Below, piece by piece: positions 41,057 to 64,000 of a stretch of 64,000 bases of DNA. Position 1 is the first letter of the stretch. Each line of letters opens with the position of its first letter. This DNA is from Isurus oxyrinchus. Taxonomy: Eukaryota. Both the position numbers and the translations under genes were made by a program. Where the stretch lies: NCBI GenBank assembly GCA_026770705.1, contig JANJGN010000546.1, positions 1-64,000 of the forward strand, written 5' to 3'. A model generated the notes under the pieces. It was not told where the DNA came from, did not search any database, and was given only the letters and a program-made list of their open reading frames with translations.

Positions 41057-41181
41057 GTAATGGCTCTGGTGAGTGACGGCTTGGATTCTGCGCTCAGGTG
41101 CCTGGTGTGAGGCTCAATAACATGAACCTTGTAATCAGAGAGAGGATGAGAGAGAGGGATAGAGGAGGGATAGAGACAGAG

Positions 41182-42114: not shown

Positions 42115-42249
42115 GAGAGACAGCATGATACTGAACCATTGCTGACTCCACAGGTACAAATCAGTGGGTAACTGGGCTGGGAATCTGGGACATATGTTGT
42201 CTACACACTGAGATTGAAGCTTTGGAGTGAGTGTAAACAGCTCCTGTAC

Positions 42250-42331
42250 CTGGTGATTCACAGAGAGTGGACTGGGGGTCAATGCAATGTCACTGGTCCC
42301 TGAAACTCTCTCCTCCATCGCTGTCTTTCTC
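42250..42331 (-). CDS. Cytoplasmic exon 1, tail module B (82 nt, phase 2-0)
   Basis: Paralog of 44716-44797 with intact splice sites. RKTAMEERVSGTSDIALTPSPLSVNHQ. Confidence 0.65.
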
Positions 42332-42464
42332 CTGCAATAACAAAATATCACACTGTGGTTATCATATAGCAGAGAGTCAGTGCAGCACAGACACAGAGCC
42401 CACTGTAACCTTACACCAATGACTGGACTCTCTCTTTAAATCACCTCTGCACAAAGCACAGAAT

Positions 42465-42930
42465 CAAGACGCTCGACACCATCCAGGACAAAGCAGCCCG
42501 ATTGATCCATACCACATCCACCACATTAAACATTCACTCCCTCCACCATGAACACACAGTGGCAGCAGTGTGTGTACCATCTACAAGATGCACTGCAGCA
42601 ACTCAGCAAGGCTCCTTCAACAGCACCTTCCAAATACGCGACCTCTACCATCTAGAAGGACAAGGACAGCAGACACATGGGAACACCACCACCTGGAAGT
42701 TCCCCTCCAAGTCACTCACCATCCTGACTTGGAAATATATCACCATTCCTTCACTGTCGCTGGGTTAACATCCTGGAATTCCCTCTCTAACAGCACTGTG
42801 GGTGTACCTACACCACATGCACTGCAGCGGGTGAAGAAGGTAGCTCACCACCACCTTCTCAAGGGCAGTTAGAGATTGGCATCAATGCGGACATCACCAG
42901 TGACAGCCACATTCGATGTAAGAATTAAAA
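42465..42930 (+). mobile_element. CR1-group LINE 3' fragment (paralog 44930-45400)
   Basis: Reverse complement of the family at 38225-38660 (caggacaaagcagccc...). Confidence 0.75.
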
Positions 42931-42948
42931 ATCTCACAGCTCAATGTA

Positions 42949-42954
42949 TTTATT
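42949..42954 (-). promoter_or_regulatory. Candidate polyadenylation signal for tail A
   Basis: AATAAA on the minus strand ~530 nt after the tail-A stop, just before the junction into tail module B. Confidence 0.4.
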
Positions 42955-43480
42955 GTGACCCTGCTGCACACACGCCCTGTCGAAGGAACCTCTGTGGTTC
43001 CATTGTTAATCGAAGCAGATCAGAGTTACTGCAACAACTTGCATTTATATAGCACCTTCAATGTAGCAAAATGTCCCAAGGCTCATCCGGGGATTGTTAG
43101 TCACATTTCACCTGACTCTGAGGCACATGAGGAGATATTAGGGACAGGAGACCAACAGCTGAGTCAACAAAGTCAGTCATTAAGGGTCATCTTAAAGGAG
43201 GAGCAAGAGATAGAGAATGAGAGACTGACACAGAAAGAAAGAGAGAGACAGAGAGGAAGAGAGAGAGAGAGAGAGAGAGACAGTGAATCTCACTCCTCAA
43301 TGGCTCAGCATCCAGTCCTCTCTGGAGAAGCATTTCATTCCAAACCACACCAACCGCAGCCCAATTCCATCCCTTCCTCCCTCTCTCCCCCTCTCCCCCA
43401 GTGGGTTGTTTCCTGTTCCCAGGGATCTCAATCCCTACCCGCACACCCACATCTCCTCACTCCCACTCCCCATTTCTCAT

Positions 43481-43729
43481 TCAGTTATGCTCAAACCTGA
43501 TCTGTGCGTATTCCGTCTCCTCTTCCCTGTGGACAGACCCATCATCACTGGACACCCTCAAAACTTGGGGATTGGCGTAGAGAAACTCTTCAGGTTTGCC
43601 GGGGTTCCCAAGTCCAGCATCGCCTCCCACTGCATCTTCAGAGAGACCCCGGGGAGCTGGGGTCTCCCCCTCACTAGTTGTGTCTCTGGTTGTGTTCCGG
43701 GGCTCAGTAATCAGCACGTTCTGTTTACC
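43481..43729 (-). CDS. Terminal cytoplasmic exon, tail module A (degenerate ITIM FLYANP + ITSM TEYAQI)
   Basis: Acceptor ttctctgtag. GKQNVLITEPRN...EEFLYANPQV...EEETEYAQIRFEHN-stop. Siglec-type two-tyrosine tail. Confidence 0.85.
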   Translation of the reverse strand, partial: GKQNVLITEPRNTTRDTTSEGETPAPRGLSEDAVGGDAGLGNPGKPEEFLYANPQVLRVSSDDGSVHREEETEYAQIRFEHN

Positions 43730-44715
43730 CTACAGAGAAATGGAAACAGAAGACATCCTCACATTATTTACTGGCACTGATAGGGTTAAATTATTGTGCA
43801 GCTTCGTTAATGTCAGTCGTGTCTCAGTGGGTTTAACTCTCTCTCCCATGTCTTATGAAAGAAACCACCTATGGCAGTGCAGTGCTCCCTCAGGACTGAC
43901 CCTCCAACAGTGCAGCACATCCTCAATAGTGACCCTCTGTCAGTCTCGCACTCCCTCAGTACTGACCCTCTGTCAGTCTCGCACTCCCTCAGTACTGACC
44001 CTCCGACAGCGCAGCAAAAACCTCAGTACTGACCCTCTGACAGTGCAGCGCTCCCTCAGTACTGACCCTCCGATGGTGCAGCGCTCCCTCAGTACTGACC
44101 CTCTGTCAGTCTCGCACTCAATCGGTAATGGCTCTGGTGAGTGACGGCTTGGATTCTGCACACAGGTGCCTGACGTGAGGCTCAATAACATGAACCTTGT
44201 AATCAGAGAGAGGATGAGAGAGAGAGAAAGAGAGAGAAAGAAAGGGAGGTTGAGATAGAGAGAGAAACTGGAATTTGTGAGGTGAAAATGCCTGGAATCT
44301 GCTTAAAGACTATGGGTTGTCTTAGAGGAGATTAGTTTGAGAATTTGTTAAAAAGTTATGATAATACTAGTTTGTAACCATGTGCATATGTTTAACTTGT
44401 GTAAATTAATATATGTCTCATTTAGTTTGATATAAACCCATCTCGAGAACTGGTGGTCTTATTCCTGAATTTAGAGATGCATCTCAAACATTCCACTGGG
44501 AAATATAGGTTATGACAGTTGTTTAAAGTTTCCCTCTGGGTTTTTAAACAACAGCCTTTACCAGTTGCTGTGTCATAACAGAGAGACAGCATGATACTGA
44601 ACCATTGCTGACTCCACAGGTACAAATCAGTGGGTAACTGGGCTGGGAATCTGGGACATGTGTTGTCTACACACTGAGATTGAAGCTTTGGAGTGAGTGT
44701 AAACAGCTCCTGTAC

Positions 44716-44797
44716 CTGGTGCTTCACAGAGAGTGGACTGGGGGTCAATGCAATGTCACTGGTCCCTGAAACTCTCTCCTCCATCGCTGTCTTCCTC
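44716..44797 (-). CDS. Cytoplasmic exon 1, tail module A (82 nt, phase 2-0)
   Basis: Acceptor ttattgcag, donor gtacag. RKTAMEERVSGTSDIALTPSPLSVKHQ; phase matches both the TM exon and the next exon. Confidence 0.8.
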
Positions 44798-45520
44798 CTG
44801 CAATAACACAATATCACACTGTGGTTATCACATAGCAGAGAGTCAGTGCAGCACAGACACAGTGCCCACTGTAACCTTACACCAACGACTGGACTGTCTC
44901 TTTAAATCACTTCTGCACAAAGCACAGAATTAAGAAGCTCGACACCATCCAGGACAAAGCAGCCCGATTGATCTACACCCCATCCACCACATTAAACATT
45001 CACTCCCTCCACCATGAACACACAGTGGCAGCAGTGTGTGTAACATATACAAGATGCACTGCAGCAACTCAGCAAGGCTCCTTCAACAGCACCTTCCAAA
45101 CCCACGACCTCTACCATCTAGAAGGACAAGGGCAGCAGACACATGGGAACACCACCACCTGGAAGTTCCCCTCTAAGTCACTCACCATCCTGACTTGGAA
45201 ATATATCACCGTTCCTTCACTGTCGCTGGGTCAAAATCCTGGAGCTCCCTCTCTAACAGCACTGTGGGTGTACCTACACCACATGGACTGCAGTGGGTCA
45301 AGAAGGCAGCTCACCACCTCATTCTCAAGGGGCATTTAGGGAATGGGCAATTAGTATTGGCCACGCCAGTGACAGTCACATTCGATGTAAGAATTTAAAA
45401 TCTCACAGCTCAGGAGGGAGCCACTCAGCCCATCGTGCCTGTGCTGGCCCTTTGTAAAAACTGTCCAATTAATCCTAAACAAATGTTTATATTAAAATCA
45501 AGTTAAATCTTCAGACTTAC

Positions 45521-45617
45521 TTTCTCACACAGATGAAGATGAAGATTCCAGCCAGGAAAACACTCAACATGATCCCAGCCGTGAACAATCCTACTGTCCA
45601 TTTACTGGAGTCTCTAC
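45521..45617 (-). CDS. Siglec-like gene, transmembrane exon (97 nt, phase 1-2)
   Basis: Acceptor ttttacag, donor gtaagt. GRDSSKWTVGLFTAGIMLSVFLAGIFIFICVRK is hydrophobic with no intramembrane charged residue. Not in the ORF track. Confidence 0.88.
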
Positions 45618-46044
45618 CTGTAAAAACAGTCATTAATTACTGCACTACAGGTTTACAATGATGCTCCGATGTATCTCGAGAAGCGATACACTCACTCAGT
45701 GTTTAAATACTCATTCTCGGGCAATGCTGACATTTATTGTCCATCCCTAGTTTCCCCTTGAGAAGGTGGTGGGGGGTCTTCCTCCTGAACCACTGGTTTG
45801 TCCCAAACTGGGAGACCAGTTCAGAGGGCAGGTAAGAGTTAACCATGTTGGTGTTTGAGACTGGAGTCACATACACACCCAGACCTGTTAAAATGGACAG
45901 GTTTCCCTCACTAAATGTGTAATTATATCTTTAATTTCTATATATATGTATCAACTAACATCACTAAAATAATCATTTATCACCTCATCTTCACACTGTT
46001 GTTTGTGGGATCTTGCTCTGCACAAATCAGCTGTTGCGTTTCTC

Positions 46045-46195
46045 AACGTAATCTATGTAACATTTATATATAATATTTATCAATGTAATCTATGTAACAT
46101 TTATATATAATATTTATCAATGTAATCTATGTAACATTTATATATAATATTTATCAATGTAATCTACGTAATGTTTATATATAATATTTTATCGT
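46045..46195. repeat. AT-rich 37-bp tandem repeat, ~4 copies
   Basis: atctatgtaacatttatatataatatttatcaatgta. Confidence 0.9.
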
Positions 46196-46538
46196 TTGGG
46201 AGGAGAACCTGAGTATTGCTGAGAAAGGACATTTTGTCAAAGCTTTCTGTCTTGCACCCAATGAAGCAGCTTATCTGGTGGAGAGGGTTCCAGATTTCCA
46301 CTCCCCTTTGTGTGAAGAAGTGCTTCCTGACATCACCCCCTGAACGGCCTGGCTCCAATTTGACCAAGTGTTGCCATTGTCACATGAGGTCAGACGATTC
46401 AAAGCTTGGTCAAAGGGGTCAGTTGTAAAGAGCATCTTAGAGGAGGTAGAGAGAGAGGTGGAGAGGTTGAGGGAGCGAATTCTCGAGTTTAGGGATCAAT
46501 CCAGCTGAGTGGAGATCGATCCTGAGCGAGTCTTTCAC

Positions 46539-46832
46539 CTTTGACCCACAGATACATCTTGAACATGGCTTCCCCGTGTGGGTTTTGAACCGAGCAGGAT
46601 GCAATCACTCCCCCCTCATCCTGGGGTCTCATCAGGGTGAGGGAACCAGTCACCAGATGCCCATCTCTGACCTGCCACGACACAAAACCTCCGTGTGTTT
46701 GGTTACCACTGATGTTGGCACTGGGCAGGTGCCAGGTGAGGTCTCCGGGTGGGTTGGAGTTGGCCACACAGATGCAGGTGACCCCCTCTGACCTCCGAGT
46801 GCACTCTGACTGCTGGGAAATCTCCGGCTTAT
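46539..46832 (-). CDS. Siglec-like gene, membrane-proximal Ig exon (MAG domain-5 type; 294 nt)
   Basis: Acceptor ctcctcag, donor gtgaaa. KPEISQQSECTRRSEGVTCICVANSNPPGDLTWHLPSANIS...CSVQNPHGEAMFKMYLWVK. The C...CxCVxxSNP motif matches the last Ig domain of MAG and related Siglecs. Confidence 0.85.
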
Positions 46833-46919
46833 CTGAGGAGGGAAGGACAACAATGAGACAACTTCATAGCAAAGTTAGAGCGTAAGATAGAATCTTCACA
46901 CTGAAACACTCATTCCTGC

Positions 46920-47660
46920 CTTTGTTACCTCCGTACTCGACTATCGCAACACTCTCCTGCCCGACCTCTCATCTTCCACTCTCCGGAAACATCAGCTCAT
47001 CCCAAACTCTGCTGTCCCCATGTCCTAACTCACACCGAGTCCCGTTCAGACATCACTCCCTGTTGGTCACTGAGCTACACTGGCTCCCGGTCCGACAATG
47101 CCACAATTTTAAAATTATCATCGTTTCAAATCCCTCCTTACTCCCTCCCTATCTCTGTAACCTCCTCAAGCCCCTACAACCCTCCCTATCTCTGTAACCT
47201 CCTCCAGACCCTACAACCCTCCCTATCTCTGTAACCTCCTCCAGACCCCACAACCCTCCCTATCTCTGTTACCTCCTCCAGCATCTACAACCCTCCCTAT
47301 CTCTGTTACCTCCTCCAGCCCCTATAACCCTCCCTATCTCTGTTACCTCCTCCAGCCATCACAACCCTCCCTATCTCTGTAACCTCCTCCAGACCCCACA
47401 ACCCTCCCTATCTCTGTAACCTCCTCCAGCATCTACATCCCTCCGAGGTCTCTGCGTTCCTCCAATTCCGGCCTCTTGACCATCCCCCGATTCCTACCGC
47501 TCCACCATTGGCGGCCGTGCCTTCAGCTGCCTGGGCCCCGAGCTCTGGAATTACCTCCGTAAACCTCTCCATTTCTATCTCTCTCCTCATTTCAGACACT
47601 CCTTAAAATCCGGCCTCTTTCTCTGAGCTTTCAGTCCCTGTTCTAATATCTCCTTATGTA
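46920..47660 (+). mobile_element. L2-type LINE 3' fragment with 32-bp minisatellite (47140-47440)
   Basis: ELHWLPV...FKI motif; ctccctatctctgtaacctcctccagcccctacaac repeats. Confidence 0.75.
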
Positions 47661-47788
47661 TCTCGGAGAGGCGCAGGGTGAAAAAAGCAGGGAGGTGATG
47701 CTAGTTATGCTAAACCACAGCAAGGAAGCTGCCCTCAGACAGAAAGTGTTTGAGTTTTAAGCAGAGACAGGGGGAGTAAAATGCTTAC

Positions 47789-48064
47789 ATTGTACGTTCA
47801 GGTGGGTGATGTTGGAGGTGCTGTTACCCACTGGGTTCCTCGCTGTGCAGTAGAAACCTGCATCATTCTCCCGTGTTACAGGAGTGAAGGAGAGAGTGCG
47901 GCTACTTGTGTTTAACTGGGTGCTGGTGTTCCCCTCGATCCTGAACCAGGTGTAATGAGATATCGGTGGGACACTTTCACTGGAGCAGGTTAATGTGATA
48001 TTGCTTCCCTCTCTTATCCCACCTGAGGATCTGCTGATGGACACCATCGTCTCCTGTGGGGAAT
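47789..48064 (-). CDS. Siglec-like gene, C2-set exon (276 nt, phase 1-1)
   Basis: Acceptor gttccag, donor gtaagc. SPQETMVSIS...GSNITLTCSSESVPPISHYTWF...DAGFYCTARNPVGNSTSNITHLNVQ, a CD22/Siglec-type C2 domain. Confidence 0.88.
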
Positions 48065-48384
48065 CTGGAACAAAGACAGAGAACAATCAGCAGGTAATCC
48101 CCACACCCCACAGCTCTCCGAAATCTCTGCGCTCCTCCAATTCCGACCCCTTGCACATTCTCCCATTCCCATCTCTCCACCATTGGCGGCCGTGCCTTCA
48201 GCTGCCTGGACCCTAACCTCTGGAATTCCCTCCATCATTTCTCACCTCCTTCGGACAAAATCTGACCCCGAGTCACATTAGGAGATATTAGGAGAGGTGA
48301 GCAAAAGCTCGCTGAAAGCAGGAGGTTTTAATGGTGTGTCTTAATGGTTTTAAGGAGCATCTTAATGGTTGAGAAAGAGTTGGA

Positions 48385-49605
48385 GATTGTGTATCTCCCG
48401 CGCATCCCCCCTTGCAAATTCCTCTCCCTCCCAGAGCAATGTAAGGGTCCCTCCTGTCTTCACTTTTCACCCCACCAGCCTCCTCATTCAAAGGATCATT
48501 CTCCGCCATTTCCGCCAACTCCAGCATGATGCCACCACCAAACACATCTTCCCTTCACCACATCCGCCCCCCCCACCCCCCCCCACGTTGGCATTCCACA
48601 GGGATCATTCCCTCCAGGACACCCTGGTCCACTCCTCCATCACCCCTAGCATCTCAACCCTCTCCGATGACATCTTCCCATGCATTTGCAGAAGGTGCAA
48701 CACCTGCCCCTTTACTTCCTCCCCCCTCACTGTCCAATGACCCAAACACTCCTTCCAGGTGAAGCAGCGCTTCATGCAGACTTCCTTCAATATAATCTAC
48801 TGCATTCACTGCTCCCAATGTGGTCTCCTCTACATTGGAGACACCAAACACAGACTGGGTGATCGCTCTGATGAACACCTTCGGTCTGTCCACAAGCATG
48901 ACCCAGACCTCCCTGTCGCTTGCCATTTTAACACCCCACCCTGCTCTCATGCCCACATGTCCGTCCTTGGCCTGCTGCATTGTTCCAGTGAAGCCCAACA
49001 CAAACTGGAGGAACAGCACCTCATCTTCCGACCTGGCACTTTACAGCCTTCCGGACTGAATATTGAGTTCAACAATTTCAGATCATGAACTCTCTCCTCG
49101 ATCTTCACTGCTTTTTGAACCCTTTTTTTATGTATTCATTTTAATTGTTTTATTTGTTGACTGTTTTCCACTTATTTTTATTATTATTATTTGAAATTCA
49201 TTTCCATTTTTATTGATTGTTTTATCCACAGATTTTAGTCTATTTTCGATCTTTATTCCCTCCACCGTCCCCTCCCCCTGCCACACCCCCACAAGGGCCA
49301 TCTGTCTCTTTCCAGAGTGCTTACCCTGGTCCCCCATTATCACACTCTGCTTAATGTCACCATTAGCACCTCCTTTATCCAATACCACCACTGTTAACAA
49401 CCCTTTGACCTTTTGTTTATGACATCTTCCACAATCTCTCCATTGCCTCCACCTATCGCTGGTTTTCTATCCAGCTCCACCTGTCCCATCGCCCCCCCTT
49501 AGACAGGATATATTTCACCACATGTCTACTTCCCTTTAGCTCTGAAGAGGAGTCTTACGGACTCCAAACGCTAACCCTGTCTTTCTCTCCACAGATGCTG
49601 CCAGA
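48385..49605 (+). mobile_element. Penelope-like element 3' part (GIY-YIG endonuclease) with terminal repeat remnant
   Basis: NIIYCIHCSQCGLLYIGDTKHRLGDRSDEHLRSV...VACHFN...GTLQPSGLN. Confidence 0.85.
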
Positions 49606-49915
49606 TGCTCAGAATCAGCTGGATGGACAGAAAGACCAATGAGTGGCTTAGATCAAGAGGAGATGTTCAGCAATTAAAAGGGTTGTTCAGGACAGTTAGA
49701 GAGAGAAAGGTCGTCAAGTACGGAGATTGGAAACGAAGACCTGACAGCCTTGTCCTGACAACCATTGAAGGAGAAACTGAGAGCAAAAACAGAAAGAGAG
49801 AGGAAAAATTGGGTGTGTGGATAACGTGGACTGAGCGAGGATTGAAGAAAACTGGATTAAAAACAACACGATCCCAATGGCTCCACGGAGACCACGGAGA
49901 CAACAAACAAACAAA
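49605..49915 (+). mobile_element. RTE-clade LINE 3' fragment
   Basis: MLRISWMDRKTNE...RKVVKYG...IEG; ends in (CAAA)n. Confidence 0.65.
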
Positions 49916-49932
49916 TGTATCTCCACACTCAC

Positions 49933-50214
49933 ATTCCACAGTGATGGTTATGAATCCCTCCACTGCTCCATGTTCATTCTCTGCCACACACTGATAGTCT
50001 CCAGTGTCCCTGGATGTAACGTGAGGAATCACCAACCACAGCTCATTGTTGGAACTTGTTCTGTTCATTGGGACATTAAGATGTCGCCACGTCAGGTTAG
50101 AAGCTGGGAAGCTCTCGACAGAGCAGATTATCACTGCAGAATTCCGCTCAATTATGTTGATCGATGAAGCGTTAATCATATCAAGAGAAGTAATTGATGG
50201 GTTCCGTGGTGCAT
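49933..50214 (-). CDS. Siglec-like gene, C2-set exon (282 nt, phase 1-1)
   Basis: Acceptor tatttag, donor gtgagt. APRNPSITS...ICSVESFPASNLTW...DTGDYQCVAENEHGAVEGFITITVE. Confidence 0.88.
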
Positions 50215-50404
50215 CTAAATACAAATAAAGGTTTCATTGTGAGCAAACACAGTGCACAGCAAGACTCCAGGTATCATCTCTCTCCATCTGGTGTCTGTGT
50301 GCATGTCAAGGCTTCTTTCCCCATTATGATTTTCTATGTCACCATTTGTAACAGACACTGCCAGTGTGTTCCTTTTTGCATATTCATGGGAAGTGGATGT
50401 ATCT

Positions 50405-50720
50405 ATCTAGACCAGCATTTATTACCCATCCCTAATTGCCCTTGAGGAGGTGGTGGTGAGTTTTTCACCTCCAGAGGATTCCCAGCCTCTGACCGGCTCC
50501 TGTAGCCACAGTATTTATGGCCGGTCCAGTTCGGTGTTTGGTTAACATCCCCCAGGATGTGGATTGTGGGGGATTCAGCGATGTGAAAGTGATTGAATAT
50601 CAAGGGGAGATGGTTAGATTCTCTCTTGTTGGAGATGATCACTGCCTGGTGCTTGTGTGGTGTGAACATTACTTGTCATTTCTCAGCCCAAGCTGAGTGT
50701 TGTTCAGCTCTTGCTGCGTG
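50405..50720 (-). mobile_element. CR1-group LINE fragment
   Basis: ISNKRESNHLPLIFN...ESPTIHILG, the same family as 38760-39227. Confidence 0.75.
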
Positions 50721-51040
50721 TGGATATGTAAACTGTCACGCTGTAATTACAGCCTTCCACCAGAGGAGACACTGTCAGGCTAGAAGAAAAGAAAGTGTCT
50801 TTCACATGATCAGGATGTTCACGGAGATTTCACCATGGAGGAATTGCTTTGGAATAATGGGGTATTGGGTGATAAACCTACAATTCACTGTTCAGGAGGT
50901 TGCTCCATCCAATTCAGTGTCTTGATGATCTGGAGTTTACCTTCCTTCAACACAGAATCAGAGCTGCTACCGAGACTCAAGTGCAGCACTGAGACAGGAG
51001 AGGGAGCTGACACGTGTGTGTGTATGTGTGTTTGTGTGTG

Positions 51041-51104
<64 letters not shown>

Positions 51105-51126
51105 GTTGAAGTTTGCAGTAACTCAC

Positions 51127-51408
51127 GTTCCACAGTGATGGTTATGAACCCCTCCACTGCTCCATGTTCATTCTCTGCCACACACAGATAGTCTCCAGTG
51201 TCCCTGGATGTAACGTGAGGAATCACCAACCACAGCTCATTGTTGGAACTTGTTCTGTTCATTGGGACATTAAGATGTCACCACGTCAGGTTAGAAGCTG
51301 GGAAGCTCTCGACAGAGCAGATTATCACTGCAGAATTCCCCTCAATTATATTGACCGATGAAGCGTTAATCATATCAAGAGAAGTAAATGAGAGATTCTG
51401 TGGAGCAT
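51127..51408 (-). pseudogene. Duplicated C2-set exon with in-frame TGA (282 nt, phase 1-1)
   Basis: Intact ttcttag acceptor and gtgagt donor. Near-identical to exon 49933-50214, but TGG-CGA-CAT has become TGG-TGA-CAT (stop at 51278-51280). Confidence 0.85.
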
Positions 51409-52345
51409 CTAAGAACAAATCAAGTATTTAATGTGAGCAAGCACTGTGCACAGCAAGACTCCATGCATCATGTCTCTGTATCTGATGCCTGTGTGCATTT
51501 CTAGGCACCTTCCCTCAAGATAAGTTCCTATGTCACATTTACAATGGGCACTGCCTATGTAAACTGACACACTGCAGGAGCATTCTCCCACCAGAGACCC
51601 TGCCCATCCGGATTTAAAGAAACTCCCTTTCACATCCTCAGGATGTCCCCAAGGGCTTGACAGGCAATGAATTATATTTAATCGATGGAGCACTGAGGGG
51701 TAAATCTACAATTCTCTGTTAAGGATTTTGCTCATCCAATTCAGGGTCTTGTTGATCTGGAGTTTACCTTCCTTCAACACAGAATCAGAGCTGACACCGA
51801 GACTCCAGTGCAGCACTGANNNNNNNNNNNNNNNNNNNNNNNNNNNNNNNNNNNNNNNNNNNNNNNNNNNNNNNNNNNNNNNNNNNNNNNNNNNNNNNNN
51901 NNNNNNNNNNNNNNNNNNNNNNNNNNNNNNNNNNNNNNNNNNNNNNNNNNNNNNNNNNNNNNNNNNNNNNNNNNNNNNNNNNNNNNNNNNNNNNNNNNNN
52001 NNNNNNNNNNNNNNNNNNNNNNNNNNNNNNNNNNNNNNNNNNNNNNNNNNNNNNNNNNNNNNNNNNNNNNNNNNNNNNNNNNNNNNNNNNNNNNNNNNNN
52101 NNNNNTGTGCATGTGNNNNNNNNNNNNNNNNNNNNNNNNNNNNNNNNNNNNNNNNNNNNNNNNNNNNNNNNNNNNNNNNNNNNNNNNNNNNNNNNNNNNN
52201 NNNNNNNNNNNNNNNNNNNNNNNNNNNNNNNNNNNNNNNNNNNNNNNNNNNNNNNNNNNNNNNNNNNNNNNNNNNNNNNNNNNNNNNNNNNNNNGTGTGT
52301 GTCTGTTGGTGCGTGTGTGGTCTGTGTAACCTGTAAACCTAACCC

Positions 52346-52379
52346 TTCCACACTGATGGTCACGAACACCCCCCACTGC
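52346..52379 (-). pseudogene. Remnant 3' end of a third copy of the duplicated C2 exon
   Basis: ttccacactgatggtcacgaac...cactgc aligns to ttccacagtgatggttatgaac...cactgc (FVTISVE vs FITITVE). Flank 51700-51820 repeats 50870-50993. Confidence 0.55.
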
Positions 52380-52399
52380 CAACAAATTTATCTCAGTAA

Positions 52400-53400
52400 G
52401 GAACATGGCACTGCCAACCCCGTCAATACCATCTTCTAAACGGGGGATTGGGTAGGAATCTGGTTTTATTGCTGCATTAACCTTTCTGTAATGTATGCAG
52501 AATCTGGTTGGAAATGAAATACCTGCTCCTTTTTACCTCCCTCCCTACGATGGTATCGTTTTAACATATTGATGTGTCACAGCCGATTCTTTATTCTACA
52601 ATCTGGGGTGTGTATCAAATAATTTACTTGACCAACCCTCCTAATTACCTTGTGGGGACCACTGAACCGCGCTTTCAGAGGCTCCCCCTGCCAAGGCAAT
52701 GATACTAACACGTCATCCCCCTGGTTGAGATGTTCGGGTCACAGCTTGCCTGTCTACCCCATTCCTTCATCTCTGTTTGAGAAACTATAAGATGTTCTTG
52801 TGCCACTTTGGAGGCTCCCATGAGCCGTTCCTGAAACATGGACACATCATCTGAAATAGAGGATTCATCCCTCTGTCCGGAATATCTTTCTTTGATGAAT
52901 TTCAGACAGCCTCTTATCTCGTGTCCATAAGTTATTCCAAAAAGACTAAAACCTGCCGATTCAGTTGGTGAATCTCGTGTGGGAAATGCAAGAAAATCCA
53001 GTCCTTTGTCCCAGTCATGGGGAGTTCATGACAATAGCTTCAATCATTGTTTTGAGGGTTTGTTGGTCCCTCTCTAAAGATCCCCGTGTCTATGGATGAT
53101 ATGCTGTGGACTTTAACTGTTTTATACCCAAATTACTCATTATGTTCGGAAAATTTTAAGACATAGAGATGGAACCTTGATCTGACTGGATCTCCAGCGG
53201 TAATCCATAATGGGTAAAAAATTGGGTTAACTTCCCTATTACTACTTTAGCTGTAATTGTTCCTAAAGGGATGGTCTCTGGAAATTGAGTTGTCATATCC
53301 ATCATAGTGAGGCCATACTGGAGTCCGGCTTTCATTTTCGATAATGGTCTAACACAGTCCACTAATGCTCGTATCCAATGGTAACGGACAATTAGCTCAC
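52400..53400 (-). mobile_element. Gypsy-type LTR retrotransposon integrase fragment (decayed)
   Basis: LTMMDMTTQFPETIPL...FFTHYGLPLEIQSDQGS, an rve core motif. Confidence 0.75.
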
Positions 53401-53569
53401 TGGAGGAGGGGAATCCACAAATATCCCCATCCTCAATGATGGGGGAGCCCAGCACATCAGGGCAAAAGATAAGGCTGAAGCATTTGCTACAACAATTATC
53501 CATTTCTGTCTGGCGTAAAAATAAGTCAGGAAATGGTGCTCAACCAGGGCTTACAAAAGAAATTAGGGA

Positions 53570-55570
53570 TAGTATTAGATCCAGAGAGGAGACATAAAAT
53601 TGCCAGGGGAAGCAGCAATGCTGAGGATTGGGAGCAGTTTAGAATTCAGCAAAAGTGGACAAAAAGATTGATCAAGAAGGGGAAAATGGAACATGGGAGT
53701 AAACTTGCAGGGAACGTAAAAACCGACTGTAAAAGCTTCTATAAATATGTGAAGAGAGAAAGATTAGCAGTGACCGATGTAGGTTCCTCGCAGTCAGAAA
53801 TGGGGGAAATTCTAATGAGAAACAAAGAAATGGCAGAAGACCTGAACATATATTTTGGTTCTGTCTTCACAAAAGAGGACACAAATAATTTCCCAGGAAT
53901 GTTAGGGAACCAAGTGTCTAGTGAGAGGGAGGAATTGAAGATAATCAGGATTAGTTTTAAAAAATGGAGCTGGAGAAATTAATGGGTTAAAGGTTGAACA
54001 GTCCCCAGGGCCTGAAAATCTACATCCCAGAGACTAACGGAAGTGACCCTGGAAATATTGGAAGCACTGGTGGTCATCCTCCAAAATTCTATAGGCTCTG
54101 GAGCAGTTCCTATAGATTGGAGGGTGGCAATTGTAACCCCACTATTTAAAATAGAAGGGAGAGAAAAAAACTGGGAATTACAGATCAGTTAGTCTAACAT
54201 GGGGAAAACGCTAGAGCCTATTATATAAGGTGTGCTAACGGAACGCTTGGAAAGCTTTAATGGGATTAGACAAAGTCAGCATGGGTTAATGAAAGGAAAA
54301 TCATGCTTAACTAATCTACTGGAGATTTTGAGGATGTAACTTGTGGAATAGATAAGGGATAACCAGTGGATGTGGTGTTTTTAGATTTCAAGAAGGCTTT
54401 TGATAAGGTCCCACATAAGAGGCTAGTGGGCAACATTAAAGCCCATGGGATTGGGGGTAATTTACTGGCATGGATTGAGAATTGGTCAACAGACAGGAAA
54501 CAGAGGGTCAGAATAAATTAGTCTTTATCTGAGTGGCAGGCGGTGACTAGTGGTGTACCACAGCGATCCGTGCTTGGGACCTAACTATTCACGATATATT
54601 TAAATGACTTGGGTGAAGGAGCCAAGTGCAATATTTCCAGGTTTTCTGATGACACAACGCTGGGTAAGGGTGTGAGCTGTGAGAAGGATGCAAAGAGGCT
54701 TCAAGGCGATTTAGACAAGTTGTGTGTGTGGGCAAACACATGGCAGATGATGTGGATGAATGTGACATTGTAGGCTTTGGTGTGAAAAACAGAAAGGCAG
54801 AGTATTATTTAAATGGTGATATAATGGGAAATGTGGATGTATAAAGGGATCTGGGTGTCCTTGTGCACTAGCCAATGAAAGTAAACAGGCAGGTGCAGCA
54901 AGTAATTCGGAAGGCAAATGGTATGTTGGCCTTCATTGCAAGAGGATTTGTGTTCAGGAGTAGGGATGTCTTACTGCAGTTATACAAGGTCTTGGTGAGA
55001 CTGCACATGGGATACTACGTGCCGTTTTGCTCTCCCTCCCTAAAAAAGGATAGACTTGCCGTCGAGAGAGCGCAGAGAAGGTTCTCTAGGCTGATACCAG
55101 GGGCGGCAGGACTGTCGTATGAGGAGAATTGGTACGACTGGGTCTGTATTCACTAGAGTTTAGAAGAATGAGAGGAGACCTGAATAAACGTAAGAAATTC
55201 TAACAGAGATAGACAGACTGGATGGAGGGAGGATGCATCCCTTGGTTGGGGAGTCTAAAACCAAGGGCGACAATCTCAGGATACAGGGCAGGCCATTTTG
55301 GACTGAGATAGGGAAACATTTCTTCACTCAGAGGGTGGTCAATCTGTGGAATTCTCCATCACAGAGGCTGTGGAGGCCGGGTCACTGAGTGTATTCAAGA
55401 AAGAAACTGATAAATATTTTGATATTAGGGGCATCAAAGGGTACGGAGAGAAAGCGGGAATAAGGCTTTGAGATAGAGGGTCAGCCTTGATCATATTGAA
55501 TGGCGGAGAAGGCTTGAAGGGCTGAATGTCCTAATCCTGCTCCTAGTTTCTATGTACCTAGGTATCTATA
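53570..55570 (+). mobile_element. 5'-truncated CR1 LINE (~2 kb, multiple stops and frameshifts)
   Basis: KTDCKSFYKYVK, gatttcaagaaggcttttgataaggtccc (DFxKAFDKVP), KANGMLAFIARG; tail tttctatgt. Confidence 0.9.
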
Positions 55571-55927
55571 GAACTATCTCTCTCCGTGTTCTATTCTCAT
55601 GTGACCTTGAGTAACTGATGATAAATACTATCTATTTACATTGTTAATATTAAACTTTTATACTACATCTCCCCCAAAATCTTTGACATCAATGAAGACA
55701 ATATTTATATTATCCTATATTGTCTTTTAAGTTCAACCTTGGCCCCCTCTGCCCTATCAGGTAGGCATAAACAATCCCAAGGCTCAATACAGGAAGAGCT
55801 CTCCCTGGTCAATATCACTAATAAAAAAGGACCTGTTTTGTCTTCAACCCAGTGATGTTTGTGGGATCTTGCTCTGCACATTGTATCCTATTACAGCTAA
55901 TATAGAATGAAGGGAATCCATACTTAC

Positions 55928-56224
55928 ATTTTACAGTTAGCATAAGGGTCTGCTCCGATGAAACAGATGGATATCTCACTCTGCAGCTGAGAGTGTGTCC
56001 GTGGTGTTTGAGTGATGGGGTCAGGGTCAGAACAGAAGTATAGGTCAGAGTGACACCATGCTGAGTTACAGTGTTTGAGACTGATCCAGGTACGTCAGTG
56101 AGAGTGTCCCAGGTTAAGACAGGTGCTGCTGTTCCATTGCACGTTGTGTTGAAGGTGCAGCTTACATCCACACGCTTTCCTGCAATAATTTCAGCAGGGA
56201 ATATCATGGGTTTATCTGTGAAAT
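55928..56224 (-). CDS. Siglec-like gene, first C2-set exon (domain 2; 297 nt, phase 1-1)
   Basis: Acceptor gtgttag, donor gtaagt. DFTDKPMIFPAEIIAGKRVDVSCTFNTTCNGTAAPVLTW...HHGHTLSCRVRYP. The CxxxxxC...P.LTW pattern with the extra Cys is typical of Siglec domain 2. Confidence 0.88.
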
Positions 56225-56569
56225 CTAACACACAGAGAATGGATCCTTTTAGAGAAATATAACGTGAAGCATCAGTTCAAATAGAAATCACAGTCCCACA
56301 AGAGAAAGCACTTTTACAAGGATGATATCAGAACTGAGAGATTACAATGATCAGGAGAGAATTTCCTATTTTCAGACTTAGTGGAGTTTCTGTCACTCAG
56401 ATGAATTCACTTCCACTTTGAGACAATTGAATTGACAATCCCGGGTGAGGGTGGGGGAGCAGCTCACAGTTCCTGACACACTGGCTTGTTACTTTCTCCG
56501 AAATCTGCCAGATTTAAATTCTATCCAGTTCCCAGCAGGAGAGAATCCATTTGAACCAATCACTGAACC

Positions 56570-56760
56570 GGCATTTAAAGCAGACGATCAGGTTATTGAT
56601 CACATTGCTGTTTCTGGGAGCTTCCTGTGCACAAATTGGCTGCTGTGTTTCCCAGATTACAACAAGGGCTACATTTCAAGAATTATTTCAATGGTTGTGA
56701 ATCCATTTGCGACGTCCAGAGGTGGTGAAAGGTGCTATAGAAATGCAAATCTTTCTTTTG
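56570..56760 (+). mobile_element. Deu-SINE 3' fragment
   Basis: atcacattgctgtttctgggagc...aaaggtgctatagaaatgcaa. Confidence 0.7.
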
Positions 56761-57036
56761 TTGATATGTAAAAGTTTTAAACAGGATTAGGGAGATTGAT
56801 GTAAGTGGATAACCTGATAACATTGATGGACACAGTCAATACATTTAATCATTGATATTAAAGTGGTATTAGAGGTTGTTTTAGGACTGAACTGGAAGCT
56901 ATCACCAGGTTATTGAGAATCAGACAGTGTGTTATAATAAGCTGTGTTTTGTGTTAATATGTAAACGTCACAGTTTGTGTTATTTCCCATTGAGTGTTGA
57001 ATGTGAATTGTTGAGTAATTATAACACAGCACTTAC

Positions 57037-57405
57037 CAGAAACGTGAAGCTGGGTTACAGGGTAATAGTTATAGCTCGGACCATTGTCAAATTCTATTCT
57101 GAAAAAATAAGGTCCTGCATCTTCCCGTCTGATGTTGTTTATAATCAGGGAACAGTCGCCATCTTTCAGGTCTCCAGACAGCCGGGTCCGATGGTGGAAC
57201 CGTGGTAACTCGTGACTGTGATCCTTGGAGTGAAAGGCAATGGGAGCCCAGGGAATCTCTTTCTCGTTATTAAACCAGACTCCACCTCGCGGTTGGTTTT
57301 CCGGACACGATGGATAACTGTAATGACATGGAATCTGTACACACGAACCTTCCTGCGCTGTCACCTCTCGTGGACTGTCACCTTTCCACTCTTGTGAGGG
57401 TTTAT
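57037..57405 (-). CDS. Siglec-like gene, V-set Ig exon copy B (proximal; 369 nt, phase 1-1)
   Basis: Same splice sites as copy A and an open frame. By my count 9 nt differences from copy A (7 non-synonymous). YFFRIE retained. Confidence 0.9.
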
Positions 57406-57439
57406 CTGGGGAGAGAAATCTCAATATTTAACTCTGGAT

Positions 57440-58110
57440 GGTTTGTGGATCCACTAGACTCAAAATTTACAGATGAGGCTGAATTGGGGGGATGGTCAAT
57501 ACTGAGGAGAATGGCAACAAATTATTTTGGCAGGAAGAATAGAAAAACAGGATATTATTTAAATGGAGACAGGCTGCAGAATGCAGTACAGAGGGATCTG
57601 GGTGTCCTTGTACATGAATCACAGAAAGTCAGCATTCAGGATCACCACGGAATGAGGAAGGCAAGTGGAATGTTGGCCTTTATTGCAAAGGGATGGAGTC
57701 TAAAAGGAGGGAGTTTAGAAGAATGAGGGGTGACCTTATTGAAACATATCCGATTCCGAGGGGGCTTGACAGGGTGGATGCTGGGAGGATGTTTCCCCCT
57801 CGTGGGGGAATCTAGAACCAGGGAGCACAGTTTCGGAATGAGGGCTCTCCCATTTAAGACTGAGATGAGGAGGAATTTCCTCTCTCAGAGGGGCGCTAGC
57901 CTGTGGAATTCTCTTCCCCAGAGAGCAGTGGAGGCTGGGCCATTGAATAGACTCAAGGCTGAGTGAGGCAGGTTTTTGATCGACAAGGGAGTCAAGGGTT
58001 TGGGGGACAGGCAGGAAAATGGAGTTAAGGCCACAACCAGATCAGTGAGAGCAGGCTCGAGGGGCCGAATGGCCTGCTCCTGTCCCTATTTCTTATGTTC
58101 CTACATTCTT
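57440..58110 (+). mobile_element. CR1 3' fragment (paralog ~60800-61650)
   Basis: QRDLGVLVHESQK...KASGMLAFIAKG, FKTEMRRNF; tail ttcttatgttcc. Confidence 0.85.
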
Positions 58111-58174
58111 ACCTTCTTAAAATATTAAAGCTGCAGAATAAACATGCAAGTGACTGACCCGCTCGACCCACCTT

Positions 58175-60160
58175 CCATCAGGGGCTGGAGGAGCTTACAC
58201 AGATAGGGAGGTTTGTGGGGGCTGGAGGAGGTAACAGAGATAGGGAGGGCTGTAGATGCTGGAGGAGGTTACGCAGATAGGGAGGGTGGTAGGACCTGGA
58301 GGAGGTTGCAGAGATAGGGAGGGCTGTAGGGACTTGAGGAGTTTATGGAGATGGGGAGCGTGTAGGGACTGGAGGAGGCTGCAAGGGCAGAGAGGGTTTT
58401 AGGGGCAGGAGGAGTTTACAGGGATAGGAAGAGTTGTAGGGGCTGGACGGATTGCAGAGGTAGGGAGGGTTGGAAAGGCTGGTGGAGGTTTCAGAGGTAG
58501 GGAAGGTTGCAGGGACTGGAGGATTTACAGAGATGGGGGAGTTTTTGGGGCAGGATGGGGTTACAGAGATAGGGAGGGTTGTAAGGGCAGGACGAGGTTA
58601 CATAGATATGGAGTGTGGCTGGGGCTGAGGGAGGCTACAGAGATAGGGAGGGTTATAATGGCTGGAGGAGGTTACAGAGATAAAGGAAACTCTTAGGGAC
58701 TGGAGGAGGTTACAGAGATAGGGAGGGTTGTAGTGGGCTGGAGGAGGTTACAGAAATATGAAGGGTTGTAAGAGATGGACCAGCTTACAGAGATAGGGAG
58801 AGGTATTCGGTCTGGAGGAGGTTGCAGAGATAGGGGAGGTTGTTAGGACTGGAGGAGGCTACATATATCGCGAGGGTTATCGGGGCTTGAGGAGGTTAAA
58901 GAGATAGGGAGGGGTGTTGGGTCCGGAGGAGTTTGCAGTGATAGGAATGGTTTTCGGGATTGGAAGAGAGTACTGAGATAGGAGGGTTGTAGGGACTGGA
59001 GGAGTCTCCTGAGATAGGGAGGGTTGTAGGGACTGGAGGAGGCTCCTGAGATAGGGAGGGTTGTAGGGACTGGAGGAGGCTCCTGAGATAGAGAGGGTTG
59101 TAGGGACTGGAGGAGGCTCCTGAGATAGGGAATGTTGCCGTGGATGAAGATAAAGGAGGAGATTACTGTAATAGGGAGGAAAAATATTCAAAAATTTGGA
59201 CATTGAGACTTTGCTTGACCAGGAGCCAGTCTCGGTCATCGAGCAGAGCGGGTGATAAGGGAACGGGACTTGGTGTGAGTAAGGACGTGGTCAGCAGTTT
59301 TGGATGGCCTCAAGTTTATGGAGTGTAGAGCATGTGAAGGTAATGAAGGCGTGGATGAGGGTTTCAGCAGCAGATGAGCTGAGACAGGGTGAAGTCGTAC
59401 GACGTTATGGAGGTGGAAATAGACGGTGTTAGTGAGGGCGCAGATATGAGGCCGGAAGCTCATCTCAGGATCAAAGGGGACAACAAAGCTGTGAACAGAT
59501 TGGCTTCAATCTCAGAGAGCTGCCAGGGAGAGGAATGGAGTTGGTAGTGAGGGAACAGAGTTTGGAGCGGGGAATGAAGACAATGGCTTCAGTCTTTCCA
59601 ATATTTAATTGGAGGGAATTTCTGCCCATCCAGTACTGGATGTCGGATAAGCAGCCTGATAATTTAGCAGCAGTGGAGGAGTCGAGAGAGGTGGTGGTGA
59701 GGTAGAGCTGGGGATCCTCAGTGGACAGGTGAAAACTAACACTGTTCAGATGATGCTGCAAAGCCATTGCAAGTGATTCTCTGGCTACGATGAGATGGAT
59801 AAGAATGGAGCCAGGGGAGAGCAGTCCCACCCAGCTGGACGACAGTGGACAGGTGTTGGAGGAGGATGGTGTGGTCGAGCGTGTCAAAGGCTGCAGACAG
59901 ATCGAGAAGGACGAGGAGGGAAAGTTGACCTTTGTCACAGTCACACAGGATGCCATTTGTGACCTTGATAAGAGCTGTTTCAGCACAGTGGCTGGGGTGG
60001 GAACCTGATTGGAGGGATTCAAACATGGAGTTCCGGGAAAGATGGAACCGGATTCGGGAGATGGAAACACGTTCAAGGACTTTGGAGGGGAAAGAGAGGC
60101 TGGAGATGGGACGGGGGTTTACACGGACAGTGTGAGGGGTGGAAGGTGTAGTGGGGAGGA
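58175..60160 (-). mobile_element. L2-type LINE fragment with expanded 32-bp minisatellite (58175-59130); paralog ~61720-63880
   Basis: RPISSLSFPSKVLER...ETALIKVTN...LLVLLDLSAAFDTLDHTILL (L2 RT). Confidence 0.85.
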
Positions 60161-60390
60161 GACACTTCACTCAGGGGGGAGGTGTCATCACCCCTCAGCT
60201 CGGTTTACGTTACAGCTATGATGTGGATTCAATCACACACAATAAGCTCATGGATCTGGGAGCAGAAATAGACAAATCATTAAAAATAGTGACGCTGGTT
60301 AACATGGCCAAAAAACAAGCAAATCAAACACTATTATTTCCCATTGAGTGTTGGATGTGAATTGTTGAGTAATTATAACACAGCACTTAC

Positions 60391-60759
60391 CAGAAACGTG
60401 AAGCTGGGTTACAGGGTAATAGTTATGGCTCGGACCATTGTCAAATTCTATCCTGAAAAAATAAGGTCCTGCATCTTCCCGTCTGATGTTGTTTATAATC
60501 AGGGAACAGTCGCCATCTTTCAGGTCTCCAGACAGCCGGGTCCGATGGTGGAACCGTGGTAACTCGTGACTGTGATCCTTGGAGTGAAAGGCAATGGGAG
60601 CCCAGGGAATCTCTTTCTCATTATTAAACCAGACTCCACGTCGCGTTTGGTTTTCCAGACACGATGGATAACTGTAATGACATGGAATCTGTACACACGA
60701 ACCTTCCTGCGCTGTCACCTCTCGTGGAGTGTCACCTTTCCACTCTTGTGAGGGTTCAG
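60391..60759 (-). CDS. Siglec-like gene, V-set Ig exon copy A (distal; 369 nt, phase 1-1)
   Basis: Acceptor tctctccccag, donor gtaagt. Translates EPSQEWKGDTPREVTAQEGSCVQIPCHYSYP...GDCSLIINNIRREDAGPYFFRIEFDNGPSHNYYPVTQLHVS. Siglec V-set hallmarks: N-terminal Trp, GSCVxIPC, E-strand DCSL, and YFFR with the sialic-acid-binding Arg. Confidence 0.9.
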
Positions 60760-63700
60760 CTGGGGAGAGAAATATCAATATTTAACTCTGGATGGTTTGT
60801 GGATCCACTAGACTCAAAATTTACTGATGAGGCTGAATTGGGGGGATGGTCAATACTGAGGAGAATGGCAACAAATTATTTTGGCAGGAAGAATAGAAAA
60901 ACAGGATATTATTTAAATGGAGACATGATGCAGAATGCAGTACAGAGGGATCTGGGTGTCCTTGTACATGAATCACAGAAAGTCAGCATTCAGGAACACC
61001 ACGGAATGAGGAAGGCAAGTGGAATGTTGGCCTTTATTGCAAAGGGATGGAGTATAAAAGGAGGGAAGTCTTGCAACAGCTGCACAGGGTGAGATTGTAT
61101 CAGGAGCAGTGTGTACAGTTCTGGTCTCCTTACTTATGGAGGGATAGAGTTGCATTGAACGCAGTCCAGAGGAGGTTCACTGGGCTGATTCCTGGGATTA
61201 AAGGGTTTGTCCTGTGAGGAAATGTTGAGCAGGTTGGGCCTGTATCCATTGGAGTTTAGAAGAATGAGGGGTGACCTTATTGAAACATATCCGATTCCGA
61301 GGGGGCTTGACAGGGTGGATACTGGGAGGATGTTTCCCCCTCGTGGGGGAATCTAGAACCAGGGAGCACAGTTTCGGAATGAGGGCTCTCCCATTTAAGA
61401 CTGAGATGAGGAGGAATTTCCTCTCTCAGAGGGGCGCTAGCCTGTGGAATTCTCTTCCCCAGAGAGCAGTGGAGGCTGGGCCATTGAATAGACTCAAGGC
61501 TGAGTGAGGCAGGTTTTTGATCGACAAGGGAGTCAAGGGTTTGGGGGACAGGCAGGAAAATGGAGTTAAGGCCACAACCAGATCAGTGAGAGCAGGCTCG
61601 AGGGGCCGAATGGCCTGCTCCTGTCCCTATTTCTTATGTTCCTACATTCTTACCATCTTAAAATATTAAAGCTGCAGAATAAACATGCAAGTGACTGACC
61701 CGCTCGACCCACCTTCCATCAGGGGCTGGAGGAGGTTACACAGATAGGGAGGTTTGTGGGGGCTGGAGGAGGTAACAGAGATAGGGAGGGCTGTAGATGC
61801 TGGAGGAGGTTACGCAGATAGGGAGGGTGGTAGGACCTGGAGGAGGTTGCAGAGATAGGGAGGGCTGTAGGGACTTGAGGAGTTTATGGAGATGGGGAGC
61901 GTGTAGGGACTGGAGGAGGCTGCAAGAGCAGAGAGGGTTTTAGGGGCAGGAGGAGTTTACAGGGATAGGAAGAGTTGTAGGGCCTGGACGGATTGCAGAG
62001 GTAGGGAGGGTTGGAAAGGCTGGTGGAGGTTTCAGAGGTAGGGAAGGTTGCAGGGACTGGAGGGGTTTACAGAGATGGGGGAGTTTTTGGGGCAGGATGG
62101 GGTTACAGAGATAGGAAGGGTTGTAGGGGCAGGACGAGGTTACATAGATATGGAGTGTGGCTGGGGCTCAGGGAGGCTACAGATAGGGAGGGTTATAATG
62201 GCTGGAGGAGGTTACAGAGATAATGGAAGCTTTTAAGGACTGGAGGAGGTTACAGAGATAGGGAGGGTTGTAGTGGGCTGGATGAGGTTACAGAAATATG
62301 AAGGGTTGTAAGAGATGGAGCAGCTTACAGAGATAGGGAGAGGTATTCGGTCTGGAGGAGGTTGCAGAGATAGGGGAGGTTGTTAGGACTGAAGGAGGCT
62401 ACAAATATCGCGAGGGTTATCGGGGCTTGAGGAGGTTAAAGAGATAGGGAGGGGTGTTGGGTCCGGAGGAGTTTGCAGTGATAGGAATGGTTTTCAGGAT
62501 TGGAAGAAGGTACTGAGATAGGAGGGTTGTAGAGACTGGAGGAGTCTCCTGAGATAGGGAGGGTTGTAGGGACTGGAGGAGGCTCCTGAGATAGGGAGGG
62601 TTGTAGGGACTGGAGGAGGCTCCTGAGATAGGGAGGGTTGTAGGGACTGGAAGAGGCTCCTGAGATAGGGAGGGTTGTAGGGACTGGAGGAGGCTCCTGA
62701 AATAGGGAGGGTTGTAGGGACTGGAGGAGGCTCCTGAGATAGGGAGGGTTGTCGGGACTGGAGGAGGCTCCTGAAATAGGGAGGGTTGTAGGGACTGGAG
62801 GAGGCTCCTGAGATAGGGAGGGTTGTAGGGACAGGAGGAGACTCCTGAGATAGGGAATGTTGCCGTGGATGAAGGAAGAGGAGGAGATTACTGTAATAGG
62901 GAGGAAAAATATTCAAAAATTTGGACATTGAGACTTTGCTTGACCAGGAACCAGTCTCGGGACTTGGTGTGAGTAAGGATGTGGTCAGCAGTTTTGGATG
63001 GCCTCAAGTTTATGGAGTGTAGAGCGTGTGTTGGAACAGTCGAGTCTGGAGGTAATGAAGGCGTGGATGAGGGTTTCAGCAGCAGATGAGCTGAGACAGG
63101 GTGACGTCGTACAATGTTACGGAGGTGGAAATAGACGGTGTTAGTGAGGGCGCAGATATGAGGCCGGAAGCTCATCTCAGGATCAAATGGGACAACAAAG
63201 CTGTGAACAGATTGGCTTCAATCTCAGAGAGCTGCCAGGGAGAGGAATGGAGTTGGTAGCGAGGGAACAGAGTTTGGAGCGGGGAATGAAGACAATGGCT
63301 TCAGTCTTTCCAATATTTAATTGGAGGGAATTTCTGCCCATCCAGTACTGGATGTCGGATAAGCAGCCTGATAATTTAGCAGCAGTGGCGGAGTCGAGAG
63401 AGGTGGTGGTGAGGTAGAGCTGGGGATCCTCAGTGGACAGGTGAAAACTAAAACTGTTCAGATGATGCTGCAAAGCCATTGCAAGTGATTCTCTGGCTAC
63501 GATGAGATGGATAAGAATGGAGCCAGGGGAGAGCAGTCCCACCCAGCTGGACGACAGTGGACAGGTGTTTGAGGAGGATGGTGTGGTCGAGCGTGTCAAA
63601 GGCTGCAGACAGATCGAGAAGGACGAGGAGGGAAAGTTGACCTTTGTCACAGTCACACAGGATTCCATTTCTGACCTTGATAAGAGCTGTTTCAGCACAG

Positions 63701-64000
63701 TGGCTGGGGTGGGAACCTGATTGGAGGGATTCAAACATGGAGATCCGGGAAAGATGGGAACGGATTCGGGAGATGGAAACACGTTCAAGGACTTTGGAGG
63801 GGAAAGAGAGGCTGGAGATGGGACGGGGGTTTACACGGACAGTGTGAGGGGTGGAAGGTGTAGTGGGGAGGAGATACTTCACTCAGGGGGGAGGTGTCAT
63901 CACCCCTCAGCTCGGTTTACATTACAGCTATGATGTGGATTCAATCACACACAATAAGCTCATGGATCTGGGAGCAGAAATAGACAAATCATTAAAAATA

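Follow-up and report, generated by a model that had tools for sequence, protein, structure and literature searches.

Do two near-identical V-set exons in tandem in a shark genome encode alternative heads of a single-V receptor, or successive domains of one longer receptor? The question is raised by a stretch of 64,000 nucleotides from Isurus oxyrinchus (assembly GCA_026770705.1, contig JANJGN010000546.1, positions 1 to 64,000; hereafter the window), which carries two such exons, V-A (57037-57405) and V-B (60391-60759), of a Siglec-like gene on the minus strand. We propose, with a probability of roughly 0.7, that, of three V exons behind one leader, V-B is the second and V-A the third, and that they are likely spliced in a row to give V domains with predicted disulfide links between them. 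The observed basis is the exon order, the single leader, the symmetric phase-1 splice sites and the patterns of Cys and Arg residues. Coordinates beyond 64000 continue the window numbering along the same contig (C546); C52 is a second contig of the same assembly.

Each exon is 369 nt long, open and flanked by AG and GT, and the spacing is 3354 bp. V-A starts with DKPS and V-B with AEPS. Both encode the YFFR motif, its essential Arg being written AGA in V-A and AGG in V-B, and both have an extra Cys in the BC loop. Nine nucleotides differ, seven of them non-synonymous (D/A, K/E, S/T, P/L, P/T, G/R and Y/H) and two synonymous (AAC/AAT and the essential Arg codon, AGA/AGG). We thereby reproduced exactly the lengths, spacing, YFFR motifs, Arg codons and change counts given in an earlier note made from the letters of this DNA (the sequence-only reading), and we agree with it that seven against two changes are uninformative on selection. 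Its description of intact Siglec-type V-set exons is supported by the database matches. The best solved structures are Siglec-5, -7, -8, CD33, Siglec-10, MAG and sialoadhesin (E values of 5e-16 to 3e-12 for Siglec-5, -7, -8, CD33 and MAG), both exons score above the Pfam cut-off for V-set and Ig_CD22, and the nearest proteins come from Carcharodon (96%) and Cetorhinus (93%). The YFFR of V-A aligns with the essential Arg of Siglec-5 and Siglec-7, and V-B has the same motif. V-A and V-B thus each show the V-set domain with an essential Arg on strand F by which Siglecs are recognized, and may bind sialic acid in an Arg-dependent manner.

The exons lie within two repeat units. Unit A (56980-60333) comprises the V exon and an intron that contains remnants resembling retroelements as well as a 37-bp minisatellite (58180-59131), while unit B (60334-64045, cut at 64000 by the window end) has its 37-bp minisatellite at 61721-62856. 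Of 3276 aligned bases, 62 (1.9%) distinguish the units, as do indels of 187, 185, 31 and 18 nt. The next unit junction lies at 64046, 45 bp beyond the window end, as had been anticipated. Looking past the window for more units and the leader revealed a further V exon, D1 (64103-64480, minus strand), and the only leader exon (68725-68764, minus strand), which is upstream of all three V exons. A third V exon had been predicted at 64103-64471; its start was right, but it is 378 nt long rather than 369 and ends at 64480, and although the V exon is there, no further repeat unit follows D1. The splice phases are symmetric (phase 1) across the V exons, and the joins are in frame. D1 shares about 75% protein identity with V-A, starts with VGLS, lacks the BC-loop Cys, has a basic, Trp-rich C-C′ loop and reads YFFTIKF, with Thr at the Arg site. 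We file the gene as Siglec-like because this outermost V lacks the Arg, just as human Siglec-XII is set apart. Three V exons farther upstream, at 77105, 83738 and 100531, were considered as a longer array and rejected: a C2 exon of its own goes with each of them, which places them in other genes.

Exon position was then read across a 924-kb sample, made up of the window and 860 kb of C52 and C546 that were partly picked as V-rich and are non-random. The sample holds 69 V exons in 36 arrays. The position counts cover intact V exons of leader-preceded arrays, leaving out three V matches without readable splice sites, ten broken exons and two intact exons in an array with no leader detected. All 24 first exons start with GLS. 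EPS or KPS starts occur in 17 of the 30 internal exons and in none of the 24 first exons; among shark and ray database proteins the corresponding figures are 18/49 internal and 0/63 leader-adjacent domains. The xxPSQEW segment, which had been taken as leader-adjacent, instead marks internal V exons.

The extra Cys follows the same division. In V-A and V-B, where it is the fourth Cys, it follows the B-strand Cys by seven residues. It occurs in 30/30 internal V exons, in 0/16 first exons of multi-V genes and in 1/8 single-V genes, the sole exception having ATA in place of its start codon. In the shark and ray proteins it was seen in 38 of 49 internal domains (35/43 once a probably merged model, P0001, is excluded) against 0/63 leader-adjacent domains, and in one of 45 first domains whose leader was absent or missed by the pattern. 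CD33 indicates what such a Cys could do: its V-domain C36 bonds C169 of the C2 domain, C41-C101 being the intra-sheet B-E pair, and C36 left unpaired leads to stray dimers (PMC6669322). In the shark gene the first C2-set exon (55928-56224, minus strand) has a Cys six residues past its B-strand Cys that aligns with CD33 C169 (alignment via the homologue P0012), and the positions of both the B-E pair and the V-to-C2 pair align with CD33, the bonds themselves being predicted from these positions. Since all 30 sampled internal V exons carry the BC-loop Cys, this residue is the likely partner of the N-terminal Cys of the preceding V. The Cys that normally bonds domain 2 had been used as an argument for mutually exclusive use of the two exons; with a likely partner in the next V, this argument, like the one from the xxPSQEW start, points the other way. 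A single-sequence AlphaFold2 prediction of the V-V-C2 homologue P0012 reached a mean predicted local distance difference test score of 37 and was not used. Three four-V ray models (P0011, P0014 and P0148) have the BC-loop Cys in V3 and an extra Cys just past the C-strand Trp in V2 and V4, which may achieve this pairing in another way.

We propose that the chain would run from the leader through D1, V-B, V-A and the C2 domains to a membrane anchor and a tail with tyrosine motifs. Each V domain would donate its conserved N-terminal Cys (the equivalent of CD33 C36) to a loop Cys of the next domain; the C2 domain has this acceptor at +6 from the B-strand Cys, and most simply the internal V domains would have copied it, gaining theirs at +7. 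The result would be a repeatable staple, from D1 to V-B, V-B to V-A and V-A to C2. The variable, Arg-less D1 could then act as an outer probe for a changing ligand, the conserved, Arg-bearing inner V domains would form a stalk that may still bind sialic acid, and the tail would signal via phosphatase-binding tyrosine motifs. Occasional skipping of a V exon would be compatible with tandem use.

Contigs of four putative RNA runs were aligned to 55900-57480 at 85% likeness. The V-to-C2 joint (57037 to 56224) is seen at the family level in three of the four, its absence from run X17 carrying no weight. Among the joints listed, X7 and X16, which are one sample, also contain joints from a V end to a V start (depths 169.5 and 84.3), beside V-to-C2 joints at depths of 1364 and 620. 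V-V joining thus occurs in the family, in putative RNA. Annotated isoforms mostly retain all V exons, and 31 of the 115 shark and ray homologues have two to seven adjacent V domains. A wider search, with 132 new proteins among its best 150 matches, added 21 with adjacent V-like domains, of which 20 were traced to frogs, turtles, gecko, teleosts, lungfish and mammals. These vertebrate models, including those of lynx and tree shrew, likewise have at least two adjacent V-type domains, and the view that two-V Siglecs are rare does not hold for the databases. The model P0199 from arowana has an extra Cys at +4 from the B-strand Cys in its second V and none in its first, a possible independent case. 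P0001 from Cetorhinus, with its isoforms, is a seven-V model in which first-type and internal-type V domains alternate and a membrane and tail segment stands at the start; it is probably several genes merged by annotation.

A number of points weigh against our proposal. Transcripts of exactly this gene were none among the putative RNA contigs over 55900-57480. The V-V joints carry VGLS or AGLS starts and so derive from paralogues; they come from one sample, the RNA status of the runs is guessed, and a back-spliced circular exon would yield an identical V-V joint. The multi-V proteins of the databases are automatic models, one of which looks like merged genes. In an annotated Carcharodon isoform, P0135, the leader is joined directly to a Cys-bearing V, the first V being skipped. 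Together with catshark models of one locus that have three or four V domains, this isoform makes cassette skipping of V exons a possibility in the family. The disulfide between V domains is deduced from a sequence pattern, the 30 internal exons are close relatives whose counts are not independent, and 11 of the 49 internal database domains lack the BC-loop Cys (three in P0001 and four in ray proteins with a Cys elsewhere). Unlike in the shark, none of 31 adjacent V pairs in the multi-V models of other vertebrates has a Cys at +6 or +7 in the second domain, so tandem use does not require this Cys. Finally, the gene copy itself bears two lesions: a TGA stands at 51280, and one nucleotide is deleted near 40678.

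These lesions lie in the part of the gene downstream of the V exons, where five C2-type exons are followed by a membrane exon and then by cytoplasmic exons in two pairs, all on the minus strand. The first C2 exon is followed, across two stretches of N (51820-52294), by a C2-type exon (51127-51408) with intact splice sites and the in-frame TGA, its sole difference from the open exon of the nearest paralogue. Three open immunoglobulin (Ig) exons (49933-50214, 47789-48064 and 46539-46832) precede an uncharged transmembrane exon (45521-45617). The first two cytoplasmic exons (43481-44797) end in a motif, TEYAQI, resembling an immunoreceptor tyrosine-based switch motif (ITSM), followed by a stop. 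In the duplicated pair (40507-42331), the last exon has LFYANI, which resembles an immunoreceptor tyrosine-based inhibitory motif (ITIM), behind the deletion. The C2, membrane and tyrosine-motif exons that a type I membrane receptor would need are present, but one C2 exon is stopped and the ITIM-like motif lies behind a frameshift, the ITSM-like motif being intact. An exon upstream of the leader (C546:69213-69299) is almost identical in sequence to the first cytoplasmic exon of a third type of tail found in the family, which suggests that this exon type is reused both as a 5′ untranslated and as a coding exon.

Two lesions in one gene could mean that the tandem design is real but that this copy is decaying or null, the C2 stop leading to mRNA decay or to secretion of a truncated V-V-V-C2 chain, with neutral drift of copy number in an unstable cluster accounting for the V duplication. 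Stops are found in only three of 43 full exons of the stop-bearing C2 type, broken paralogues are common (10/66 V exons), and identical internal V copies occur up to three times elsewhere. However, the stop exon is phase-symmetric and could be skipped, the shorter tail ending at 43481 is intact, and each lesion, a single base, may be allelic or reflect a sequencing error. D1, V-B and V-A are all open, and the head recurs at C52:745 kb ahead of C2 exons with no stop. We regard a decaying copy as unlikely.

Mutually exclusive use, in which V-B, V-A and also D1 would give single-V receptors with different binding loops, was the preference of the sequence-only reading and is unsupported by our analysis. 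It is true that the exons stand in tandem with symmetric phases and almost equal lengths, that their differences cluster in one loop, and that P0135 and the catshark models show a leader joined to an internal-type V and a V number that varies at one locus. However, xxPS starts never follow a leader. Signal cleavage follows the -3/-1 rule, and a Pro and a charged residue at the start of V-A or V-B would fall at the likely cleavage site. A lone V-A or V-B would also leave its BC-loop Cys free, V-V joints are present in putative RNA of the family, and the internal exons are less diverse than the first exons. No exclusion device was found: the 3-kb introns impose no steric bar, the joins are in frame rather than clashing, and within 55900-64000 there are only weak inverted repeats and no strong one of the docking type. 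There is no leader match between the three V exons, as protocadherin-type use would need, and a scan of 55,001-70,000 on both strands for the recombination signal sequences that rearranging antigen-receptor V segments would carry (heptamer-spacer-nonamer consensus, up to three mismatches) gave none. Mutually exclusive use is therefore very improbable.

An origin of the duplication in faulty assembly, with haplotypes or paralogues of a repetitive cluster mis-joined, is very improbable: hundreds of near-identical copies do lie on many separate contigs, and the head, tail and upstream neighbours of this mosaic gene do match three different places on C52, but the units diverge by 1.9% plus four indels, the three-V order stands on a second contig with each intron nearest its positional counterpart, and 20 of the 36 sampled arrays are multi-V. 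The same D1-EPS-KPS head is found at C52:745-753 kb with a different tail, and a simple mis-join is unlikely because of this recurrence. The two head introns of the gene under study differ from each other by 1.1-1.8% and from their positional counterparts on C52 by 0.1-1.3% (tree support 97/90 and 99/98). We consider the duplication very likely real.

Returning to tandem use of the three V exons, the mosaic bears on how they arose. C52:743-756 kb matches the head at about 99%, a single-V gene at C52:1-15 kb the tail at 99-100%, and C52:313-334 kb the upstream neighbours at about 99%. Unequal crossing-over with conversion explains this best, assembly chimerism or allelic structural variation being possible too. 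Positions 41000-56000 of the window and C52:1-15000 are 99-100% identical tails, and the gene and the single-V gene may be alleles that differ in V number. A simple origin from two-V genes R (D1-EPS) and Q (D1-KPS) was partly supported only, as the second intron groups with Q (98/97) and the first has no firm grouping with R. The extra unit would most likely have come from unequal crossing-over in a cluster where several hundred near-identical genes swap their heads and tails. Elsewhere in the window, positions 1-37000 contain low-complexity, CCT-rich satellites and a tandem duplication of about 8.3 kb that relates 10485-17440 to 18800-25659 (98%); the long open frames in this part are repeat artefacts.

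Comparison of the sampled arrays places this gene within a large family. Exact motif counts over the whole assembly, which are lower bounds that uncollapsed haplotypes could inflate and include many broken copies, gave 556 V, 443 first C2 and 504 leader-end matches, and 226 for a motif including the BC-loop Cys codon (reversed controls 0 in each case). The 36 arrays comprise 16 single, 14 double and three triple, with one each of four, five and seven V; a leader stands in front of 32 and a C2 exon behind 35. Of the 66 V exons whose splice sites could be read, ten carry a frameshift, a truncation or a stop, and protein-identical internal V copies recur up to three times in other genes. One seven-V gene (C52:1871385-1887042) has three protein-identical internal exons about 2.3 kb apart and an Arg-bearing membrane exon at its end. 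The essential Arg is kept in 31/32 Cys-bearing, internal-type exons against 14/24 Cys-less, first-type exons, ten of this first type lacking it. Mean pN/pS (non-synonymous and synonymous differences per site) was 0.125/0.144 for first-type exons (loops 0.268/0.276) and, among internal-type exons, 0.036/0.067. These values do not demonstrate positive selection, no pN/pS exceeding 1 in either exon type by a crude method that gene conversion confounds. The 38 sampled membrane exons fall into three tail types, 11 like that of the gene under study, six of another tyrosine-bearing type and 21 short-tailed. Of the short-tailed exons, 20 have a buried Arg (for example C546:73762-73899) and are usually preceded by a half C2 exon; a buried membrane Arg is, at the level of sequence, the signature of adaptor-coupled activating receptors. 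The duplication in the window is an ordinary member of this family and probably not a splice switch.

We compared the shark gene with known systems. The best matches by sequence mix Siglec-5, -7, -8, CD33 and MAG. These CD33-related Siglecs and MAG share with it the YFFR Arg, the positions of the B-E and V-C2 Cys pairs and, as predicted here, a tyrosine-motif tail, but have a single V. Siglec-12 has two V-set domains, and human Siglec-XII has lost the Arg (R122C) (PMC6288428). The shark gene is similar in placing tandem V domains before C2 and in having lost the Arg, as Thr in D1. However, Siglec-12 is one gene with two V domains, against three here, up to seven in paralogues and a family of hundreds, and in a monkey Siglec-12 model (P0224) the second V has no BC-loop Cys. 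The paired Siglecs 5/14 and 11/16 carry near-identical outer domains on different tails (PMC13358205). The shark family likewise puts similar heads on different tails, short ones in 21/38 membrane exons, but it runs to hundreds of copies with a V number that varies and three or more types of tail. Dscam-type mutually exclusive exon arrays and the clustered protocadherins have rows of similar exons ahead of shared downstream exons, and the row of similar Ig exons before shared exons resembles them. The shark gene differs from both in its one leader, its position-specific exon types and the V-V joints of its family, and no docking element was found in 55900-64000.

To our knowledge, Siglecs are taught as single-V receptors with Siglec-12 as the sole exception. 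The multi-V architecture is already present in automatic NCBI models; the family size and the predicted staple between V domains are the part worth study. Our literature search, with subscription reviews of Siglec evolution mostly outside it, brought up no paper describing a shark Siglec family that is expanded or multi-V. The whale shark genome paper mentions Siglecs once, among ancestral families, and its supplementary file 9 may bear on family size (PMC8455134). Humans have about 15 Siglecs (PMC8615218), and the shark assembly about 440-500 gene-like units with one to seven V domains.

We tentatively suggest that these units form a germ-line repertoire in which shuffled modules make up several hundred Siglec-like receptors: an outer V that is variable, often lacks the Arg and has turned from sialic acid to other ligands, a disulfide-stapled stalk of zero to six conserved, Arg-bearing V domains setting reach and sialic-acid avidity, and an inhibitory or activating tail, recombined by unequal crossing-over and perhaps by V skipping. 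Such a repertoire, doubtful as yet, would be a large innate system beside antibodies and T-cell receptors. The predicted staple would be a simple solution to the free-cysteine problem that arises when V domains stack. If the staple and the division of labor are true, they show a way for a glycan sensor to become longer and multivalent, and would point to an uncharacterized large family of innate receptors in cartilaginous fish.

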